Positions 54,191-63,974 of a stretch of DNA of 64,000 nt are shown here, one piece after another. The translations under genes and the position numbers were made by a program. The notes below the pieces were generated by a model. It saw only the letters and a list, made by a program, of their open reading frames with translations, did no database searches and was not told the DNA's origin. Numbering within the stretch: position 1 is the stretch's first letter; each line of letters begins with the position of its first letter. This DNA comes from Candidatus Parcubacteria bacterium (lineage in GTDB: Bacteria; Patescibacteriota; Patescibacteriia; Magasanikbacterales; UBA922): contig PKTJ01000066.1 in assembly GCA_002869205.1 (NCBI GenBank), positions 187 to 64,186 of the forward strand, given 5' to 3'.

Positions 54191-55627
54191 ATGACAAAAC
54201 AAACAAAAATTGTATGTACCATAGGTCCAGCATGTGAAACCGTGGAGACGCTCGAAAAAATGGTGAAAGCGGGGATGAATGTTGCACGATTGAATTTTTC
54301 TCATGGTTCATACGAGCACCATAAAAAACTTATAGCCAATATTCGTGAAGTAGAAAAACGTACAGGCGAACCTGTCGCAATTGTGCAGGATTTGCAAGGA
54401 CCAAAAATTCGTATTGGGGATTTGGGTGAAAAGGGTATCAAGCTTATACCGGGTGAAGATATATATTTTTCTACTGACATGACCGATAGGCAATCTATTC
54501 CTATTCAGTATGAACACTTGCATGAATATATAAAACGCGGCGAGAAGATGTTGCTCGACGATGGAAAAATGGAAGTAAAAATTTTGGATGTAGAAGGAAA
54601 GAAAATAAGAACAAAAATTATCGTAGGTGGTCTGTTGCTCGCGCACAAGGGAATCAATATTCCCGAATCCGATTTGTCTCAAATGCAAGTGCTTACATCA
54701 AAAGACAAAAGTGATGTGCGCTTTGGTGTGGAAAATGGTGTGGATATGATTGCGTTGTCCTTTGTCATGAAGCCAGATGATATTTTGGATCTACGTTTTC
54801 ATGTAAAACAAGTGGAATCAGAATTAGATATTGTAGGCAATCAGCCAATTCGACTTATTGCTAAAATAGAAAAACCAGAAGCAGTAGAACGTATGGAGGA
54901 GATTGTTCAGGTGGTAGATGGAATCATGGTGGCTCGTGGAGATCTAGGACTTGAGATCCCAGCCGAAGAAGTTCCTCTTGTGCAGAAAAAACTAATTGAC
55001 ACAGCGATGGAAGCTGGAAAGCCAGTGATTGTTGCTACGCAGATGCTTGATTCTATGCAGCATAATCCACGTCCAACGCGTGCTGAGGTGTCTGATGTAT
55101 CAAATGCCGTTATTGATCATACTGATGCAGTCATGCTTTCCAATGAGACGGCAGCAGGGGAATATCCTGTTGAGACTGTCGCAACTATGGCACGAATCAT
55201 TGCAGAGACTGAAAAATCTCATTATGATGATTTGCCATTTCGAGAACCAAAGACAAAGATTCACAAGATCGACGATACTATTAGTGGATTGTCTCGAGTC
55301 ATGGCAGAAAAGATTGGTGCAAAACTTATTTTGGCTGCTTCCATCTCTGGTGAAACAGGCCGACTCATTTCTCGTTATCGTCCCGAGTTTCCTATTGTTG
55401 TTGCGACAAGTACAGATCGTGTGCAACGTCAATTGAATTTATCATGGGGTGTACGACCGTTTATCCTCATGCCGTGTAATTCTATTGAAGAGCTTGTGGA
55501 TCGTGCAGTGATACATCTAAAAAAAGAAGATTTGGTCAAAATTAATGACAAAATTATTGTGGTAGCAGGGGAGCCAGTCGGACATGCAGGACATGTGAAT
55601 TTATTGGAAGTTAGAGAAGTAAAGTAG
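54191..55627 (+). CDS. pyk: Pyruvate kinase
   Basis: TKIVCTIGPA, RLNFSHG, IAKIE, MVARGDLG, ATQMLDSM, PTRAE. Confidence 0.97.
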   Translation: MTKQTKIVCTIGPACETVETLEKMVKAGMNVARLNFSHGSYEHHKKLIANIREVEKRTGEPVAIVQDLQGPKIRIGDLGEKGIKLIPGEDIYFSTDMTDRQSIPIQYEHLHEYIKRGEKMLLDDGKMEVKILDVEGKKIRTKIIVGGLLLAHKGINIPESDLSQMQVLTSKDKSDVRFGVENGVDMIALSFVMKPDDILDLRFHVKQVESELDIVGNQPIRLIAKIEKPEAVERMEEIVQVVDGIMVARGDLGLEIPAEEVPLVQKKLIDTAMEAGKPVIVATQMLDSMQHNPRPTRAEVSDVSNAVIDHTDAVMLSNETAAGEYPVETVATMARIIAETEKSHYDDLPFREPKTKIHKIDDTISGLSRVMAEKIGAKLILAASISGETGRLISRYRPEFPIVVATSTDRVQRQLNLSWGVRPFILMPCNSIEELVDRAVIHLKKEDLVKINDKIIVVAGEPVGHAGHVNLLEVREVK

Positions 55628-55864: not shown

Positions 55865-56575
55865 CTAGTTCACGGTGTGGTCGTCGCGCCACCTGGCACA
55901 GATGTCGTCCGGGTACTTCCACGTACCGTCGTCTCGGGTGTCGAGACAGTGGATCATCGGATCTTCCTGTGAGGTAGAGATGTTGTAGGATGTGCCATCT
56001 GGTGTGATGATGATGACCGTCGAGGTGATCGGCTTGTCACCTTCATGTTTCCAGTCAGTCGGTCCACGATACGGGCGAGGGGAGATGTCGAGGTGGGTGT
56101 TTTCATCGCAGTTCTTACCCTCGATGTAGAAGCAGCGACCGTATTCCGGGATGGGATAGATGCCGTGAAACTCTATGTGACAGACCGCGTGCGTGATGCA
56201 CTCGTGAGGAAGTTCCTCACCGAGACAGTCACTCACGGTGGCGCACTCGTAGTTGTCGTAGTCTGGCGCGGGGAGCTCCGACGCTTCGATCGAATCGACG
56301 TAGATGAACGAGTCGACTTCGATTTCACCCACGAGAACCCACTCGTAGATGGATCCGTCCGGCGTCCAGAAGGGGCCGTCGAGCCAGATGACTTCATCAC
56401 GCTTGGGTTGTGCCGCCATCGTGGCGGCCTTGTCCAGCGTCTTCATCTTATCCGTCGAGTCCTGCTGCTCGGCTTCCAGGGACGCGCCGAATCCGATCGC
56501 GATCGACGCGAACAGGACGAGGGTCATCATAGGGACGTTGACGATGGTTCTGATGCTGGCCGCTCGGTTGCTCAT
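55865..56575 (-). CDS. GC-rich secreted or membrane-anchored Cys-rich hypothetical protein
   Basis: GAGGAG SD before the ATG at 56575, hydrophobic N-terminus, CATVSDC...C...C...C...C cluster. Confidence 0.7.
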   Translation of the reverse strand: MSNRAASIRTIVNVPMMTLVLFASIAIGFGASLEAEQQDSTDKMKTLDKAATMAAQPKRDEVIWLDGPFWTPDGSIYEWVLVGEIEVDSFIYVDSIEASELPAPDYDNYECATVSDCLGEELPHECITHAVCHIEFHGIYPIPEYGRCFYIEGKNCDENTHLDISPRPYRGPTDWKHEGDKPITSTVIIITPDGTSYNISTSQEDPMIHCLDTRDDGTWKYPDDICARWRDDHTVN

Positions 56576-56626
56576 TTTCGAGCTCCTCATTGTGTCCGTG
56601 GGCTTTTTCGAGCCCTGTTGCGATTC

Positions 56627-56963: not shown

Positions 56964-59900
56964 ATGGTTGCAAAGGGGGCGAAAAAATCTCGAAAAGACA
57001 AACATATTTTGTGGTTCAAAGAAATCGGCATCAAGGATGTTCCACTTGTTGGTGGAAAGAATGCAAGTCTTGGAGAGATGTATAACACGGTTACAAAAAA
57101 AGGCATCAATGTCCCAAATGGTTTTGCAGTTACCGCTGCGGCATATTGGGATTTTTTGGATAAAACAAATCTGAAAGCAAAGATAAAAAAAGAATTAAAA
57201 GATCTCGATGTAACAAATGTTCGTGAGCTTGCACGTGTAGGAAAAAAAGTTCGCAACATGGTTCTTGCAGCAAAATTTCCTGCACATTTGGAAAAGGAAG
57301 TGGAAAAAGCATATGCAGAATTATCTAAACTAGAAAAAACAAAAAATATCGCAGTTGCTGTGCGATCTAGTGCAACTGCAGAAGATTTGCCTGATGCGAG
57401 TTTTGCTGGTCAGCAAGAAACATATTTGAATATAAAAGGCGTCAAGTCACTTCAGACTGCAGTAAAAAAGTGTGTCGCGTCGCTCTTTACGAATCGCGCC
57501 ATCTCATATCGTGAGACAAAAGGATTTGACCATCTCACTGTTGCCCTGTCAGTTACGGTTCAGGTGATGGTTCGTTCAGATGTGGGTTCTTCTGGAGTAC
57601 TCTTTACACTCGATACAGAATCAGGTTTTCCTGGAGTGGTACTCATCAATTCATCCTACGGTCTTGGAGAATACGTGGTAAAGGGTCGGGTAACACCAGA
57701 TCAATTTTATGTTTTCAAAGAAGGAATAAAACAAGGCAAAAAATCTATTATTAGTAAAATTATTGGTTCAAAAGAAGTAAAACTTGTATATGGAGCCACT
57801 AGTGGTACGAAGCAACTTGCAGTAAAGAAAGCTGATCAAAATAAATTTTCTATTACACCAGATGAGGTTATTAAATTGACGAAATGGGGAATGCAGATTG
57901 AAGAGCACTATAAACGACCTCAAGATATTGAATGGGCAAAAGATGGTAAGACAGGAAAGCTCTATATTGTCCAAGCTCGACCTGAGACAGTAAAATCTCA
58001 TACAAATAAATCGGTGATTGAGACATATATTCTCAAGAAAAAGGGTAAACAAGCACTTACCGGTATTTCAGTAGGACAAAAGATTGGTGCAGGAAAAGTT
58101 CGTGTGATTGACAATCCAAAGCAGATGAAACAGTTCAAAAAAGGCGAAGTGCTCGTGACTCGTATCACTGATCCAGACTGGGAACCAATCATGCGTATTG
58201 CAAGTGCTATTGTCACAGAGCAGGGTGGTAAGACAAGTCATGCTGCTATTGTAAGTCGTGAGCTTGGTGTGCCATGTGTTGTTGGTGCGCGTGCTGCACG
58301 CAAGACTTTGAAAACAGGGAAACAGGTTACCGTGAGTTGTGCTGAGGGCGATGAGGGTATTATTTATAATGGTATTCTTCCGTTTGAAGTCAAGAAAACT
58401 GAAATTAAAAAAGTAGAAAAAACAAAAACAAAAATCATGATGAATGTTGGTGATCCTGACAATGCATTTAGTTTGTCATTTTTACCAAATAATGGCGTAG
58501 GTCTGGCACGTGAAGAATTTATTTTTTCCAATTTTATCCGTATTCATCCACTTGCGCTCGTTCACTACAATAAGCTCAAGGATAAGAAAGCCAAGAAAAA
58601 GATTGCTGAGATGACAAAAGGGTATAAGAAAAAGACTGACTATGCAGTAGATAAGCTTGCGGAAGGTATTGCACGAATTGCAACAGCATTTTATCCAAAT
58701 GAAGTAATTGTTCGCTTGTCTGACTTCAAAACAAATGAATATGCAACACTTCTTGGTGGAAAAGAATTTGAACCAAAAGAAGAAAACCCAATGATTGGAT
58801 GGCGTGGGGCAAGTCGTTATTATTCAAAAGAATATAAGCCAGGATTTAAGATTGAGTGTGAAGCACTCAAGAAAGTTCGTAATGAATGGGGTCTGACCAA
58901 TGTGATTACTATGGTGCCATTTTGTCGTACACCAGAAGAAGGAAAAAACGTGCTCAAGACTATGGCAGACTTTGGGCTCAAACAAGGTGAGAATGACCTC
59001 AAAGTATACGTAATGTGTGAAATCCCAAGTAATGTTATCTTGGCAGAAGAGTTTGCAAAATTATTTGACGGATTTAGTATTGGGTCAAATGATTTGACTC
59101 AGCTTACTTTGGGTGTTGATCGTGATTCATCTCTAGTGAGTCATGTGTATAGTGAAAAAAATAAGGCAGTAACTAAATTGATTCGTGATGTGATTCGTGT
59201 TGCCCACAAACATAAGCGAAAAGTAGGTATTTGTGGACAAGCTCCGAGTGATTATCCTGAATTTGCAGAGTTTTTGGTACGTGAAGGTATTGATAGTATT
59301 TCTCTTAATCCTGATACCGTTGTTTCTACGCGTGAACGTATTGCCTATGTAGAAAAAACTCTAGGAAAGAAAGGTAAGAAGACACACAAATCATATCTTG
59401 GTCTTGTTGCCGGTCTTGCTGTCCTTTCTGCTAGTCTGATGATGGTGGGTGGTGGCTGTGATTCAATTCGAGGTGATTTACCAACCCCTCATACCGACCT
59501 CATCGATATGAGCCCTGCAGAGATTCGTGAACGTGTAGAGAAAAAATTAAATGAAACACAGGAATTAGAAAAACAAAAACCAACACAAGAATTAAAAGTA
59601 AATAGTTTTGAACATTTTTCAATCAAATATCCACAAGAATGGTCTGTAGAAAATTGGAATGGTGGTGTCACGATGAGAAATAATGAGACAGGGGAGTATG
59701 TGAGTTTGTTTGATCAGCTTGTTGGTCACCCTGTGGCAGAAGGTGTGAAGGAGATTGTTACAGTTGGTGGAAAAGATGCAACGAGGTATGTAGAAGATTA
59801 TAAGGGTGACGATACAGAGTCAGCATCATTTACCGTAGTTGAGATTGATATGGAAGGATATGTTTTTGAAATCAACAGCAATGCAGATAATTTTGATGAT

Positions 59901-60098
59901 ATCTTAGACACGTTGGTATTTGTCTCAGAAGATTCGCCAGACAGACCACTAACACACTGGGATGTGAGAGAGAAGCGTGTGTGTATACAGATGATCACCT
60001 ATGCTCGCCAAGGAAGTGAGGGTATGTGTGAAGTATTTCCTACACCGTGTGACGTACCTGATGGGTGGAATGTCTGTGACGCAACAGACCTAGAATAA
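56964..60098 (+). CDS. ppsA: Phosphoenolpyruvate synthase with a C-terminal TM/lipobox and extracytoplasmic extension
   Basis: GGKNASLGEM, VRSSATAED, TSHAAIVSRE (phospho-His), GWRGASRY, SIGSNDLTQ, GICGQAPSD, then about 240 extra residues. Confidence 0.93.
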   Translation: MVAKGAKKSRKDKHILWFKEIGIKDVPLVGGKNASLGEMYNTVTKKGINVPNGFAVTAAAYWDFLDKTNLKAKIKKELKDLDVTNVRELARVGKKVRNMVLAAKFPAHLEKEVEKAYAELSKLEKTKNIAVAVRSSATAEDLPDASFAGQQETYLNIKGVKSLQTAVKKCVASLFTNRAISYRETKGFDHLTVALSVTVQVMVRSDVGSSGVLFTLDTESGFPGVVLINSSYGLGEYVVKGRVTPDQFYVFKEGIKQGKKSIISKIIGSKEVKLVYGATSGTKQLAVKKADQNKFSITPDEVIKLTKWGMQIEEHYKRPQDIEWAKDGKTGKLYIVQARPETVKSHTNKSVIETYILKKKGKQALTGISVGQKIGAGKVRVIDNPKQMKQFKKGEVLVTRITDPDWEPIMRIASAIVTEQGGKTSHAAIVSRELGVPCVVGARAARKTLKTGKQVTVSCAEGDEGIIYNGILPFEVKKTEIKKVEKTKTKIMMNVGDPDNAFSLSFLPNNGVGLAREEFIFSNFIRIHPLALVHYNKLKDKKAKKKIAEMTKGYKKKTDYAVDKLAEGIARIATAFYPNEVIVRLSDFKTNEYATLLGGKEFEPKEENPMIGWRGASRYYSKEYKPGFKIECEALKKVRNEWGLTNVITMVPFCRTPEEGKNVLKTMADFGLKQGENDLKVYVMCEIPSNVILAEEFAKLFDGFSIGSNDLTQLTLGVDRDSSLVSHVYSEKNKAVTKLIRDVIRVAHKHKRKVGICGQAPSDYPEFAEFLVREGIDSISLNPDTVVSTRERIAYVEKTLGKKGKKTHKSYLGLVAGLAVLSASLMMVGGGCDSIRGDLPTPHTDLIDMSPAEIRERVEKKLNETQELEKQKPTQELKVNSFEHFSIKYPQEWSVENWNGGVTMRNNETGEYVSLFDQLVGHPVAEGVKEIVTVGGKDATRYVEDYKGDDTESASFTVVEIDMEGYVFEINSNADNFDDILDTLVFVSEDSPDRPLTHWDVREKRVCIQMITYARQGSEGMCEVFPTPCDVPDGWNVCDATDLE

Positions 60099-60135
60099 AT
60101 AAGACTACAGAGCCTCACAGAGGCTCTTTTATATA

Positions 60136-61173
60136 ATGCATATGATGTTATCTCAAAAAGAAAAATTATTTTTAATACCTCTTGGGCTTGTTGCTATTGT
60201 GGTAGCTGCGGTTGGTGGGTATGTTATTTCTGAAGTGGGTTTTTCTGGAGGTGGTGAGGAAAGACAAATAGTTTCATATAGTGAAGAATCACCTGATCAA
60301 GATGAAAATAAGATCGATACTAAAGTGGAGGATCAGATGATTTCGTGTGTCATGGTAGACAAAAGTTTGGATATTGTTCCAGACGAAGGTCTGGGTGTGT
60401 ATTACAAGACACGCTTGTTTCCTGTAGAGACAAATGTTAGGCATGATATTTTTGTAAATGATTCAGCAATTATTGCGTTTAAACATTTTAATGGAGGAGG
60501 GGACCCCTATAATTATGATGAGGAAAAGTGGAGTAAGTTTGCTGGACAAGGACCTTCTTATTTTGTCGAAATGCTAGATTTTTCTGCACCTAGGAATGTT
60601 TCTGTTATCCCAACTTTTTCTATTCCTCATGAGGTTATTACCAATGACAATTTTATGGGTAATATCACAAATGTGAGTTATGGTGATAGTTGGTTTATTT
60701 TCTCTCGGGGGTTTGCAGCGTTTACTGGTTCGGTGGTGGATCAGAGATTGACAGAGGTTGCCTATGATCGTAAGTTTCGAGAGATTGTTATTCCAGAAGA
60801 ATACACTGCTGATCCAGAATTTCGTTCTGGTCCGGTTCATGGTTTTACTGTTAATAATAATACGTCAACCATAGGAGACATGCTTGGTCTTTTGCGTGAT
60901 GATACCATTGTGTTTTCTTTGCAAAAAAATACTAGTACATATATTGGTTATGAAATAAAAAATGACTCATGGATAGAAGTTTCTGTAGATGAGATATATG
61001 ATGTTGATATGACAGTCTATGAAGAGGTTGGTGGACCACGTATATACAAACCCCTTGATCTTATCAAGGAGTATGGTTGTTTTGCACTTCCAACACCGCG
61101 TGGTGATATGGTTTTTACGTCGCATGAGCTTGGTAATCTGAATGACGAGATGGATGTGTGGTTTGCTCGATAG
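60136..61173 (+). CDS. Membrane-anchored hypothetical protein
   Basis: N-terminal TM helix, 345 aa, host-like composition. Confidence 0.7.
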   Translation: MHMMLSQKEKLFLIPLGLVAIVVAAVGGYVISEVGFSGGGEERQIVSYSEESPDQDENKIDTKVEDQMISCVMVDKSLDIVPDEGLGVYYKTRLFPVETNVRHDIFVNDSAIIAFKHFNGGGDPYNYDEEKWSKFAGQGPSYFVEMLDFSAPRNVSVIPTFSIPHEVITNDNFMGNITNVSYGDSWFIFSRGFAAFTGSVVDQRLTEVAYDRKFREIVIPEEYTADPEFRSGPVHGFTVNNNTSTIGDMLGLLRDDTIVFSLQKNTSTYIGYEIKNDSWIEVSVDEIYDVDMTVYEEVGGPRIYKPLDLIKEYGCFALPTPRGDMVFTSHELGNLNDEMDVWFAR

Positions 61174-61220: not shown

Positions 61221-61292
61221 TTTGCTTTTTATTTTTGGTCGTGTTAGGTTTTATATATTGTCAACAATGTTCTCCACCAGATGAGGTCTGAT

Positions 61293-62045
61293 ATGAGCAT
61301 CAGGTTTACGTGTGAAGTCGAGACGCCTGACGGTGTCGTGCGATTCGTTCTTGATTCGTGGCGTTCTTCGTCGGAGGATGATCGAACCATCGAGCCGGAG
61401 TTCTATGTGGATTACTGTGCGGATGGTCAGATCCCGCAGGGTCCTCATCACGAGGTCGAGATCCTCGAGCCGGCGAAGATCGGTGGTCACGAGCACGAAG
61501 AAGTCATCCACTATCACATCAATCGTGGTGGTGGGCAGTTCGTGTGCTGGACCGGTTCTCTGCCGTCGCTCAGTGCGGTCAGTACCATGCTTCGCGTGTG
61601 GTGTGCTGGGACTGCCTTCACCATGGCGACTGGTAAGGACTTCACGGTCGAGTTCGAGGGTGATTTCGATCAGATCGTACGCGGCCTTTCTGAGGCCGGA
61701 TACAAGGTAGTTCTGTGTCGTAACGACCTGCAGCAGTTCGAAATTAGTATGACGTTTTCTCATAACGTGACATGGTCTGCTTTCAGCTCACCGCTGGTCA
61801 AGGAGATCGTGGCGCGGCTGCCGCGTGAGCAAGAAGACGTCTTGCGTGCAGTAGTAGAACACTTGCGTTCTCGCACACCACACGAGAACGGCGCGATCGA
61901 AGACAGTCTCATGGTTGCCTGGGGTGTGTTCTGTCAGAGGCTTCGGGGTAATTTGGACCTCAGCGAGCCTATCGCGACGCCATTGGCGATCGGTGATCTG
62001 AGCGGGTGGGTTCTGTGGGCTGAAGAAAGCGCCAACATGTGCTGA
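61293..62045 (+). CDS. GC-rich hypothetical protein
   Basis: GAGGT SD before the ATG at 61293; strong third-position G/C bias. Confidence 0.7.
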   Translation: MSIRFTCEVETPDGVVRFVLDSWRSSSEDDRTIEPEFYVDYCADGQIPQGPHHEVEILEPAKIGGHEHEEVIHYHINRGGGQFVCWTGSLPSLSAVSTMLRVWCAGTAFTMATGKDFTVEFEGDFDQIVRGLSEAGYKVVLCRNDLQQFEISMTFSHNVTWSAFSSPLVKEIVARLPREQEDVLRAVVEHLRSRTPHENGAIEDSLMVAWGVFCQRLRGNLDLSEPIATPLAIGDLSGWVLWAEESANMC

Positions 62046-62118
62046 AGGGAGGGTGTTGTGGCACGTTCACCACCAAGGGGAAGCCCTGACTGATCGCACC
62101 GAACAGTCGGGGACAGTC

Positions 62119-62150
62119 AAAAACAGTCTAGTTTATAGACTGTTTTTTTG
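62119..62150 (+). terminator. Terminator of GC-rich unit 1
   Basis: AAAAACAGTCTA-gttta-TAGACTGTTTTTTT. Confidence 0.75.
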
Positions 62151-62238
62151 TGTTTTTACCCTTGACATAAGGGTTTTTTTGTGATACAACTCGAGCAGGT
62201 TTGAGAAAGCGAAACCAGGAAACAACAGGAGTGACATC

Positions 62239-63060
62239 ATGTCGCATAAGAATAGTTCGCGTTCGTTCATGCAGAACCTCGGTACGTACCGTGTGCAGCG
62301 TAGAATCTTCATTTTTTCGACACTTATCTCTCTGATCGTGATGTGTTCACTGCGTTCGGATAGCAGCGACGACCAAGAACAAGAGGTCGCTGTGTCAGCC
62401 ACTCCTGTCATCGTGCCGACGCAGTCCGGTCGTCCGGCGATTCCTGGACCGCTCGAGATTCCGAGCGATGAATTCAGGAAGTGGTCGGCCAAAGAGCTTG
62501 ATCGAATCGTGCGTACACACCCGAGTGAATTGATCTCTCGAGATCTGCTCGGACATGTCGAGGCACGTCCTCGCCGAGTTCATCCGAGTTTCGCTCTCGT
62601 CGAGACACCGGTACCACGCATGGCACAAGCGTTTTGCGATCTTCTGCCAAGCAGTGGAACTCGCGTGGGCTTCACCATCTTTCCGAGACTGTTCTTTGCA
62701 GACAATGTCTCGGATGTGGATCGTTACACCGCGCTTTACCATGAGTATGACCATATCGCCGAGATGCTGGCAGACCCATCCCTGTGTCCGTTTTTCTCAG
62801 AGACATGGGTCGGCACGTCTCTCGAGGTCCGTAGGTTTTTTGACCTCGAGATGCAGGCCTACAGCGCGGCATGTGAATTCGAGATCGTACATGAGCTTGT
62901 GGACCGGGCGCACCAGTCGGGCTGTCGCATATATCGCGATCAGGGTCCGGAGACTTATCTGAGGCTCACCTCTACACGTCTCGAAGCTATGCCGATCTTC
63001 GCGCCGTACCGGAACAAGCTTCTGGGATGGGCGCGTGAGTACATCGAACATAATCGTTAG
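62239..63060 (+). CDS. GC-rich membrane-anchored protein with HEXXH motif (putative metallopeptidase)
   Basis: TTGACA promoter at 62162, AGGAG SD, N-terminal TM, LYHEYDH and downstream LEMQAY. Confidence 0.7.
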   Translation: MSHKNSSRSFMQNLGTYRVQRRIFIFSTLISLIVMCSLRSDSSDDQEQEVAVSATPVIVPTQSGRPAIPGPLEIPSDEFRKWSAKELDRIVRTHPSELISRDLLGHVEARPRRVHPSFALVETPVPRMAQAFCDLLPSSGTRVGFTIFPRLFFADNVSDVDRYTALYHEYDHIAEMLADPSLCPFFSETWVGTSLEVRRFFDLEMQAYSAACEFEIVHELVDRAHQSGCRIYRDQGPETYLRLTSTRLEAMPIFAPYRNKLLGWAREYIEHNR

Positions 63061-63147
63061 GCTGAGGAGGTGCCTCAAGAACCCGACGCCCAAAGCGTCT
63101 GGCTGGTCCCGCAGGGATCATTCAGCGAGCGTGCATCGGGATCAGTC

Positions 63148-63178
63148 AAAAACAGCTTTTTCTAAAAGGCTGTTTTTG
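63148..63178 (+). terminator. Terminator of GC-rich unit 2
   Basis: AAAAACAGCTTTT-tct-AAAAGGCTGTTTTT. Confidence 0.75.
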
Positions 63179-63350
63179 TTTTGACCCACTCACAAAAACA
63201 TGTTAAAATAATCCACCTGTGATAAGGCGCGTGAGCGTTTTGTCACGGTTTTTTGTAATGTTGAGACAGAGGAGTGGGTTTGATAGCTTTGTTTGTGTCG
63301 GGATTGGCCCGTCGCTGGCAAGGTGTCTAACTCACTTTTCGAGGTAGTCC

Positions 63351-63974
63351 ATGCGCGTTTGTAGCTTGTTCTCGATCCTGGTTCTCAGTGTCTCTTTCTC
63401 CTTCCTCGCTGCGTGCAACGATGATTCGTCTGGCGGCAGCGGTACGGTGGAGGAGACTGAGTACATCTCCTGCAATCCGGCTATGGGAGGTGACTGCCCG
63501 GATGGATCCTCGTGCGCTCGTCTCGAAGGCGATGCGCACACGCTCTCGGTATGCGTCCAGGACGAGCACGTGCCCTGTGTCGCCGACTTCGAGTGCGATG
63601 GCGGGCAGTGTATCTCCGTCCAGGGTCTTCAGCAGACCATCTGCACTCAGTCCTTGGCTGAAGATATCGGCTGTCCGTTCTACGGCTTTGATGAGCTCGA
63701 GTACGAGGTGAAGGTCGGGAACGAGACGTTCTACTTGCTCACCGAGTATGTCTCGGAATCGTGTGAGCTGTCCATGAGGCTGAAGTCCGACCTTAGCAAC
63801 ATGGCCTGGCATTACGTCTTGTACGTCGATGAGGATGACAGCCTCCGTGGCGTCGTCGGCAATGGCGCCCAGGTCGAAGTCCTTCACCTCAGCTTGGGCT
63901 GGATCCAGGTTCGTGAGACCGATCCGGACGGCGGCGCCGACCCGATCGAATACACCTTCTTCCTCGTACCGTAG
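63351..63974 (+). CDS. GC-rich Cys-rich lipoprotein
   Basis: TTGACC-N17-TAAAAT promoter at 63181, GAGGT SD, LAAC lipobox, Cys-rich repeats. Confidence 0.75.
   Translation: MRVCSLFSILVLSVSFSFLAACNDDSSGGSGTVEETEYISCNPAMGGDCPDGSSCARLEGDAHTLSVCVQDEHVPCVADFECDGGQCISVQGLQQTICTQSLAEDIGCPFYGFDELEYEVKVGNETFYLLTEYVSESCELSMRLKSDLSNMAWHYVLYVDEDDSLRGVVGNGAQVEVLHLSLGWIQVRETDPDGGADPIEYTFFLVP

Follow-up and report, generated by a model that had tools for sequence, protein, structure and literature searches.

Why would a gene for phosphoenolpyruvate (PEP) synthase (PpsA), an enzyme that is normally soluble, run on in frame into what looks like a lipoprotein signal and an exported domain? The question is raised by a 64,000-nucleotide stretch of DNA from Candidatus Parcubacteria bacterium (order Magasanikbacterales; assembly GCA_002869205.1, contig PKTJ01000066.1, positions 187 to 64,186), here called the window. 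A sequence-only reading of the window had offered two explanations, a membrane-tethered enzyme or a polyprotein cut by signal peptidase II (LspA); both are still live, and the evidence now leans towards the tethered, intact enzyme. The fusion itself is real and conserved, and we hold it very probable that it yields one chain in which a membrane-anchored PpsA is joined to an outward-facing domain of the PsbP/Mog1p fold. Below, G000 is the source genome and other genomes carry G numbers, f1, f4, and f8 are families, g4 is a genus, P marks cluster representatives, and L marks loci.

A complete PEP synthase continues into a conserved extension

The locus holds a single open frame of 1044 codons (Table 1). 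As had been claimed, it opens with a complete PpsA: residues 11–801 match the PpsA profiles far above their cut-offs (NF005057, 1204.9 bits against 598; TIGR01418, 1162.3 against 739.75), the nucleotide-binding, mobile-histidine, and PEP-binding domains stand in the normal order, and the closest solved relative is PDB 2ols (E 2.5e-268), with two other solved relatives, 9dae and 8a8e, deposited with 24 chains. All 14 chosen key residues, which we take to have catalytic or substrate-binding roles, are kept, including H426, presumably the phospho-carrier histidine, and C757, presumably the catalytic cysteine of the barrel. The enzyme is predicted to be active and to lie on the cytoplasmic side; its gene is the only one in G000 with a PEP-binding barrel (PF02896) and thus encodes the genome's only PEP synthase.

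The basic patch KKGKKTHK, the hydrophobic helix, and the GGGC motif with Cys832 were located where the sequence-only reading had placed them, as were the domain containing FSIKYPQEWSV (residues 885–895) and the tail with cysteines at 1007, 1022, 1029, and 1038. That reading had also noted the lack of a methionine ahead of the helix, and we found no in-frame ATG, GTG, or TTG between the enzyme end and the helix, the earliest lying at residues 826–828, at the far helix end. G+C content is uniform over the junction (38–40%), and a contig from run X1 covers 58943–60300 with zero differences, showing neither stop nor frameshift, although X1 may be the source sample and hence not independent. Assembly error and a lost stop, the latter already thought less likely, are ruled out by this contig, by the same fusion in 68 further clusters, and by the invariant G-x-G-C described below.

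Distribution and origin of the fusion

Relatives within the Candidate Phyla Radiation (CPR), in which the sequence-only reading had proposed to look for the same fusion, do encode it. A search with residues 790–1044 returned 68 clusters (90% identity; proteins of 574–1827 amino acids, aa), all with PpsA domains; the named ones are Ca. Magasanikbacteria or Patescibacteria, and their source records call them plain PEP synthase. Within the order, the extension matched in 131 of 240 genomes, namely 96/106 in f1 (plus G000), 34/100 in f4, and 0/33 in the other eight families; f8 has a plain PpsA of 777–788 aa. Best matches lie in frames of at least 861 aa in 115 of the 131 genomes. Most of the other 16 start at a contig end, and those read break at runs of N (as in G215 and G229), at a contig end, or inside the enzyme (as in G165, where the enzyme is dead and the junction is not affected). 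Wherever it can be read, the extension is in frame with the enzyme. Separate ppsA and lipoprotein genes, the arrangement that would have told against a fusion, were not seen in relatives: a search of shorter proteins gave 12 matches, and the eight that were read included no complete extension with its own signal. Locus searches using the window extension, P0087, and P0151 returned nothing.

Outside the order, in a class-level sample of 401 genomes, outer-domain matches are separate frames of 176–474 aa. Among 20 such frames fetched, the protein starts with an N-terminal anchor helix or, in two (L091 and L099), a lipobox. PpsA outside the order is mostly 790–830 aa (among 150 of 225 matches listed), no C-terminal helix was present in any of 19 fetched copies, ten of them long frames and the longest included, and all 20 class or f8 copies that were read end near residue 800. 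A FastTree phylogeny built on 87 enzyme cores groups the enzymes of f1 and f4 in a single clade (support 1.0), and f8 is among the closest sequences that fall outside it. The simplest reading of these sequences is one fusion in the f1/f4 ancestor, for which the free-standing, exported PsbP_2-like proteins of Patescibacteria are the likely donor family.

Two unusual copies were encountered along the way. A 1225-aa PpsA outside the order (L101:583–4260, in G505) carries an insertion of about 415 residues by the catalytic histidine motif, possibly an intein. The fused gene was not found in the f1 genome G233, where L218:1495–2760 encodes a 421-aa PEP-utilizing protein with only the histidine domain and the barrel (29% identical).

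Conservation of the linker, helix, and lipobox

Conservation is concentrated where the enzyme meets the membrane. In the linker, T799, G801, and G804, with E797 just upstream, are invariant in 69/69 fused proteins, and linker identity is 73–87% over five genome pairs; small residues of the helix at 813, 819, and 822 are conserved in 67–68/69, and G829, G831, and C832 are invariant in all 69 f1-like proteins. The tether behind the cysteine is variable (majority-residue fraction 0.21), and its predicted local distance difference test score (pLDDT) is below 50 at residues 829–850. In the five genome pairs, helix identity (0.94, 0.67, 0.44, 0.50, and 0.61) exceeds that of an ordinary lipoprotein signal (0.72, 0.50, 0.11, 0.17, and 0.39) in 5/5, a comparison based on one control family, while the outer domain is less conserved than its counterpart in 4/5.

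Judged by layout, the segment is a Sec/signal peptidase II (Sec/SPII) signal: basic residues (802–809) precede an uncharged hydrophobic stretch (810–828) and an [AGS]-Cys (GGGC). By position it is not, since such a cysteine is expected some 15–40 residues from the start and here it is residue 832, with no conserved internal start. Nor does the window protein qualify as tail-anchored, with 212 residues after the cysteine, whereas the helix-only relatives described below do so or nearly so. G000 encodes intact-looking Lgt and LspA, read by motifs that we take to be diagnostic of these enzymes, and has N-terminal lipoprotein candidates with boxes such as VGAGC, LGAGC, SGGGC, and AGFGC, the same GxGC type as the fusion; among two to three internal rule matches, the fusion box is the sole convincing one. 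Cys832 is likely, if putatively, lipidated because the genome has both enzymes and uses GxGC lipoboxes. Lgt occurs in 224/240 and LspA in 227/240 genomes of the order, and comparing lipobox loss with loss of either gene was uninformative, both being near-universal. No match to the SRP54 family (Ffh and FtsY) exceeded the cut-off in 21 genomes (G148, G000, and 19 relatives), and G000 has two YidC-family genes.

The sister family f4 departs from this pattern. Across 37 f4 genomes selected for coverage of the genera, the cysteine and the glycine at −3 are always present, and position −1 is threonine in 27, glycine in five, serine in two, alanine in two, and asparagine in one. Threonine at −1 was absent from N-terminal lipobox candidates in both genomes surveyed (0/9 in 800 of 963 kb of the f4 genome G087; 0/20 in G000). 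The published monoderm lipobox pattern (PMC13068155) has A, G, or S at −1, A and G together accounting for 94% in one proteome. The cysteine is retained in 57/60 helix-covering representatives, the other three (P0083–P0085) having F or Y. Since f4 mostly has threonine at −1 and cysteine-less forms exist, cutting by LspA does not appear to be required. An intramolecular disulfide between Cys832 and the four-cysteine module was also considered and is unlikely because f4 and g4 keep the cysteine without that module.

Loss of catalysis, cysteine, or outer domain in relatives

Four states exist among the relatives: an active-type enzyme with lipobox and outer domain, which is commonest; a dead enzyme with both; a dead enzyme with the outer domain but no cysteine (three clusters, one syntenic); and an active-type enzyme with the helix only (one clade). 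All 14 key residues are present in 18/20 f1 loci, and decayed copies make up 5/69 fused proteins. In a 50%-identity library, 31/32 long PpsA-homologous representatives keep only 0–9 of the 14 and 30/32 keep G-x-x-C; here intact copies presumably merged with ordinary PpsA, and fast drift inflates the cluster count. Decay affects the nucleotide domain in P0018, P0020, and G027, the barrel in P0021, L139, and P0050, and the whole enzyme, histidine included, in g4, P0034, and G165, as far as alignments at 14–49% identity, which are imprecise, can place it. In two cases, a single genus contains both intact and decayed copies (G171 against G172; G022 and G026 against G027), so decay happened more than once.

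Genus g4 has one or two of the 14 key residues left at its six full-length loci, where the pyruvate kinase (pyk) motifs are intact. Its stand-alone PPDK_N genes were considered as replacement PEP synthases and rejected, as they are without a PEP-binding domain and G000 has one too. The dead part is still about 700 residues long. For five g4 pairs its ratio of nonsynonymous to synonymous substitution (dN/dS) is about 0.3, and for one it is 0.05, rough values with dS near saturation; among active pairs that allowed the calculation, dN/dS of the junction region is 0.04–0.13. Because the dead part stays long and under selection next to an intact pyk, these comparisons suggest that the PpsA body has a job free of catalysis.

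In P0083–P0085, a dead enzyme is joined to the helix and a complete outer domain, but F or Y stands where the cysteine would be, which leaves no LspA target. One of them, P0085, lies at the orthologous f1 site, behind ftsZ, nrdR, a small gene, and an intact-looking pyk. Conversely, 12 f4 genomes in three genera have an enzyme with 14/14 key residues and a hydrophobic tail (19-residue hydropathy 2.3–2.8) without the lipobox cysteine or outer domain, one of these frames running off its contig. Because they form one clade (support 0.98), they reflect a single event. Membrane attachment of the active enzyme thus appears to have been kept over a long branch, given the retained tail, without being essential everywhere, given three f4 forms (L037, L038, and L042) that lack the helix. 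The proteins of L037 and L038 end in a short tail that is basic and contains aromatic and hydrophobic residues; it may be an amphipathic helix that binds the membrane.

The outer domain and its predicted dimer

Searches with the outer-domain sequence in Pfam, NCBIfam, and PDB gave no significant match; the Pfam family PsbP_2 scores 14.7 bits against the window (cut-off 27) and matches 6/48 members weakly, while the free-standing P0187 and P0191 pass. A protein atlas search gave leads only (best score 0.88). An AlphaFold2 model of the extension, built from 48 sequences, has pLDDT 88, and with this model Foldseek matched 11 chains of the PsbP/Mog1p fold (E 3.5e-5 to 8.8e-4). Residues 873–990 gave VIA Z scores of 12.4 for BT_1490, 11.0 for Tsi3, 10.9 for TplEi, 9.7 for CyanoP, and 9.6 for LpqN, the top seven matches spanning 12.4 to 9.3 with root-mean-square deviations of 3.0–3.7 over 109–118 residues. 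The domain is thus predicted to have the PsbP/Mog1p fold, and a shared fold gives no function.

The four-cysteine module behind it is mobile: unrelated proteins that have a signal-like N-terminus contain it repeatedly, and free-standing anchored proteins have it after the same PsbP-like domain. It forms two to six tandem repeats in P0109, P0119, P0128, and P0081, and the library searched contains no Pfam family for it. Among enzymes of disulfide formation, VKOR was found in G000 and DsbB was not.

Homodimer prediction for residues 787–1044 scored 0.71 against 0.01 for the best control, with contact agreement of at least 76% among runs and pLDDT of at least 75; the score mark, applied with the protein's own alignment, was reached by 20/30 solved homodimers and 1/23 monomers. 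The predicted contacts lie in the outer domain, at residues 874–881, 894–903, 919–925, and 991–1013, and the prediction supports a dimer.

How the chain may work, and the alternatives

In the reading we favor, to which we give about an even chance, the product is a single-pass protein that stays uncut, is probably a dimer, and serves both to tether the enzyme and as a scaffold independent of catalysis. The chain would insert with the PEP synthase in the cytoplasm and the PsbP-fold domain outside, as the basic charge ahead of the helix predicts, and would work uncut as a membrane-spanning dimer. It would have two jobs: the helix would keep PEP/pyruvate interconversion at the membrane, and the enzyme body would serve, in the cytoplasm, as a scaffold supporting the outer domain, whose likely role is to bind a partner in the envelope or on a host surface. 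The lipobox likely descends from that of an exported PsbP-like protein, which became joined to the end of ppsA in an ancestor common to the two families; Cys832 would probably be lipidated by Lgt, or else bridge two subunits, with cutting by LspA unneeded. We favor this reading because of the dead-enzyme, cysteine-less, and threonine forms. The strong conservation of the helix, the homodimer score, and the clade that kept an active-type enzyme and a hydrophobic tail also count in its favor. Several observations weigh against it. The window box (VGGGC) is canonical, glycine at −1 is invariant in the 69 f1-like proteins as a cut site would require, and we know of no way for Lgt and LspA to ignore such a box; the disordered, variable tether is typical of lipoproteins and poorly suited to rigid coupling, and neither the helix nor Cys832 has confident contacts in the dimer model. 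The helix-only clade shows that the outer domain can be dispensed with, and the three f4 forms without a helix are nested among fused ones. P0151, whose locus was not found, could represent a free-standing extension. The lipobox censuses cover few candidates, and threonine at −1 is taken, from Escherichia coli, to allow slow lipidation but to block cutting.

The canonical box and floppy tether of the window keep alive the polyprotein reading, which we consider a real possibility at clearly less than even probability. Lgt would lipidate Cys832 and LspA would then cut, giving a tail-anchored PpsA (residues 1–831) and a PsbP-like lipoprotein (832–1044), with the one helix anchoring the first product and acting as the signal of the second, hence a gene that stays unsplit. 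This agrees with an f1 motif that resembles the genome's own lipoboxes, with the broad retention of the cysteine, with helix-only genes that encode nearly exactly the predicted N-terminal product, and with free-standing outer-domain homologs that include N-terminal lipoproteins (L091 and L099). The prevalence of Lgt and LspA fits too, but is too near universal to discriminate. Against it, threonine at −1 in 27/37 f4 genomes and the cysteine-less forms argue that cutting is not general, and some 700 dead-enzyme residues under selection ahead of the helix would need a separate job. The uncut chain and the polyprotein could both hold in part or differ by lineage.

An improbable alternative is a one-component receptor, in which ligand binding by the outer domain would switch the PEP synthase through a change in dimerization, as in PknH-type receptor kinases. 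The enzyme–helix–outer domain layout and the predicted outer dimer suit such a device, and the usual PpsA regulator family, PF03618, was not found in G000 (97% complete). The PknH sensor domain, which has two disulfides (PMC3601408, PMC4118811), is a weak fold match (Z 5.3), yet this value is within the range of a common arrangement. Retention of the outer domain after loss of catalysis implies that the enzyme is not its sole output, active enzymes have lost the domain, and the tether is floppy and variable.

That the fusion is functionless, with two products made through an internal start, a neutral lost stop, or an assembly error, is highly improbable. P0151 and P0087 do begin with their own methionine, although the P0087 contig is only 1058 bases long, and 10/13 f4 sequences have an ATG at −40 to −18 that could serve as a start; this is the methionine of the enzyme's last helix, which unfused PpsA has too. 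In f1, an ATG precedes the helix in 9/46 sequences, and GTG or TTG there exceeds 16/46 in no column. An internal start is accordingly ruled out for the window and f1, and less completely for f4. Presence in 68 clusters and the low junction dN/dS also speak against a neutral accident.

Going beyond the favored reading, we tentatively suggest, as a rather doubtful extension, that PEP synthase was co-opted to form the cytoplasmic half of a dimer that spans the envelope and is inserted without signal recognition particle (SRP). Such a dimer would be a scaffold for attachment, the division site, or host contact that outlives catalysis, and the lipobox would be a processing switch set by lineage as cut (glycine), slow or uncut (threonine), or absent (no cysteine).

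Gene neighborhood and other features of the window

The sequence-only reading had put ppsA next to pyk, but the two are not directly adjacent in the window: a 241-aa open reading frame (ORF) on the opposite strand (55865–56590) lies between them. This ORF has about 58% G+C in a 38% region, a signal-like N-terminus, and no Pfam family of note, and is likely an insertion. The usual f1 order is ybeY, dgkA, ftsA, ftsZ, nrdR, a small gene, pyk, and ppsA, with pyk at most three genes away in 16/20 f1 loci. Unfused f8 has pyk–ppsA in 3/4 loci, whereas fused f4 mostly has pilin, prepilin peptidase, ligA, and ppsA, with no pyk seen in the roughly 3 kb read upstream. The pairing is therefore older than the fusion and unneeded for it, which rules out a link between pyk and the fusion. 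The small ORF between nrdR and pyk (cluster c7; loci L123–L140) is conserved at 90–150 aa without a Pfam match, occurs in 19/61 loci compared, all f1, and is a candidate partner.

Table 1. Features of the fused gene and its surroundings, in window coordinates
Feature	Position	Strand	Remarks
Whole fused ORF	56964..60098	+	1044 aa: PpsA, linker, helix, lipobox, outer domain; full-chain AlphaFold2 mean pLDDT 84
PEP synthase, residues 1–801	56964..59366	+	PPDK_N 27–352, mobile His domain 391–462, PEP-binding barrel 478–796
His426 codon, TSHAA motif	58239..58241	+	
Cys757 codon, GICGQ motif	59232..59234	+	
Basic cytoplasmic linker, residues 799–809	59358..59390	+	From conservation; KKGKKTHK is 802–809
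Predicted single membrane helix, residues 810–828	59391..59447	+	Model helix 809–829; conservation
Internal lipobox-like GGGC, residues 829–832	59448..59459	+	Cys832 codon 59457–59459
Tether 833–849 (variable, predicted disordered) and stalk helix 851–870	59460..59573	+	From pLDDT and conservation
PsbP/Mog1p-fold domain, residues 873–990, predicted outside the membrane	59580..59933	+	pLDDT 88; Foldseek and VIA
Four-cysteine module, C1007, C1022, C1029, C1038	59946..60095	+	Missing in some relatives
Terminator-like hairpin directly 3' of the stop codon	60109..60127	+	Pattern match only
Pyruvate kinase gene pyk	54191..55627	+	Neighbor by ancestry, outside the fusion

Terminator-like hairpin patterns number seven against 4.3 expected in shuffles. 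Three further ORFs (254, 273, and 207 aa) at 61281–63974 have 51–59% G+C and no Pfam families, the last with a lipobox-like signal and a cysteine-rich segment. Elsewhere in the genome, G000:C5:19170–40127 (L208 and L209) contains about ten tandem ORFs of 349–544 aa ending in a PEP-utilizer mobile histidine domain, along with a 122-aa stand-alone histidine domain and a 319-aa stand-alone PPDK_N; single copies lie on C12 and C28, and G178, G165, and G233 have many similar matches. The array resembles a split, expanded rifamycin-phosphotransferase/PigC-like ligase system with a shared ATP-grasp protein and many substrate modules.

Significance and relation to known systems

PEP synthase of CPR bacteria is treated solely as a route between PEP and pyruvate in the relevant part of PMC7304191, and full-text literature searches, with subscription papers and preprint supplements outside their scope, found no description of the fusion; PMC12419801 proved unrelated. 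For metabolic maps, some PEP synthase copies of this order cannot, by their residues, interconvert PEP and pyruvate, and others would sit at the membrane. The family offers a case of a core metabolic enzyme repeatedly becoming a retained pseudoenzyme. It also lets one ask of natural proteins whether a lipobox 830 residues into a chain, behind a large folded cytoplasmic enzyme, is acted on by Lgt and LspA, in cells for which the 21 genomes searched gave no SRP54 match above the cut-off. In these host-dependent cells, the outer domain may provide a handle on envelope organization or host contact.

Known PpsA (EC 2.7.9.2; TIGR01418, NF005057; 2ols) shares with the window protein its three domains in their usual order and the 14 key residues; the window chain has 243 extra residues comprising helix, lipobox, and outer domain. 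Sec/SPII proteins of the PsbP/Mog1p fold, represented by CyanoP (2xb3), DcrB (6e8a), LpqN (6e5d), Tsi3 (4luq), and BT_1490 (3hlz), several of which we take to be lipoproteins, share the fold and the basic–hydrophobic–cysteine layout followed by a disordered tether. In the window, by contrast, the signal comes after 800 folded residues and is longer and more conserved, and relatives have threonine at −1 or no cysteine. Free-standing PsbP_2-like proteins of Patescibacteria (P0187, P0191, P0224; L081–L100) have the same outer domain, several with the four-cysteine module, but are encoded in frames of 176–474 aa with an N-terminal anchor helix or lipobox and no enzyme. Like bacterial tail-anchored proteins, the helix-only relatives and the predicted LspA product consist of a soluble domain with a C-terminal helix; PEP synthase is not mentioned among such proteins in the part of PMC3087755 that was available. 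The uncut window chain differs from them by its 212 residues behind the cysteine.

The cytochrome b-c1 polyprotein FbcH of Bradyrhizobium also has an internal signal, of type I, cut by signal peptidase between respiratory membrane subunits, without lipidation or a cytoplasmic enzyme. PknH (sensor domain 4esq) joins a cytoplasmic phosphotransfer enzyme through one helix to an outer domain with two disulfides; to our knowledge, its helix has no lipobox, and the cytoplasmic part of the window chain is instead a metabolic dikinase, in which only PpsA domains and no Hanks-type kinase were found. A PknH sensor-type domain also occurs in lipoproteins (PMC4118811). Taken as a whole, the chain resembles a type II single-pass protein or an internal-signal polyprotein and, by the position of its cysteine, is not a Sec/SPII lipoprotein.

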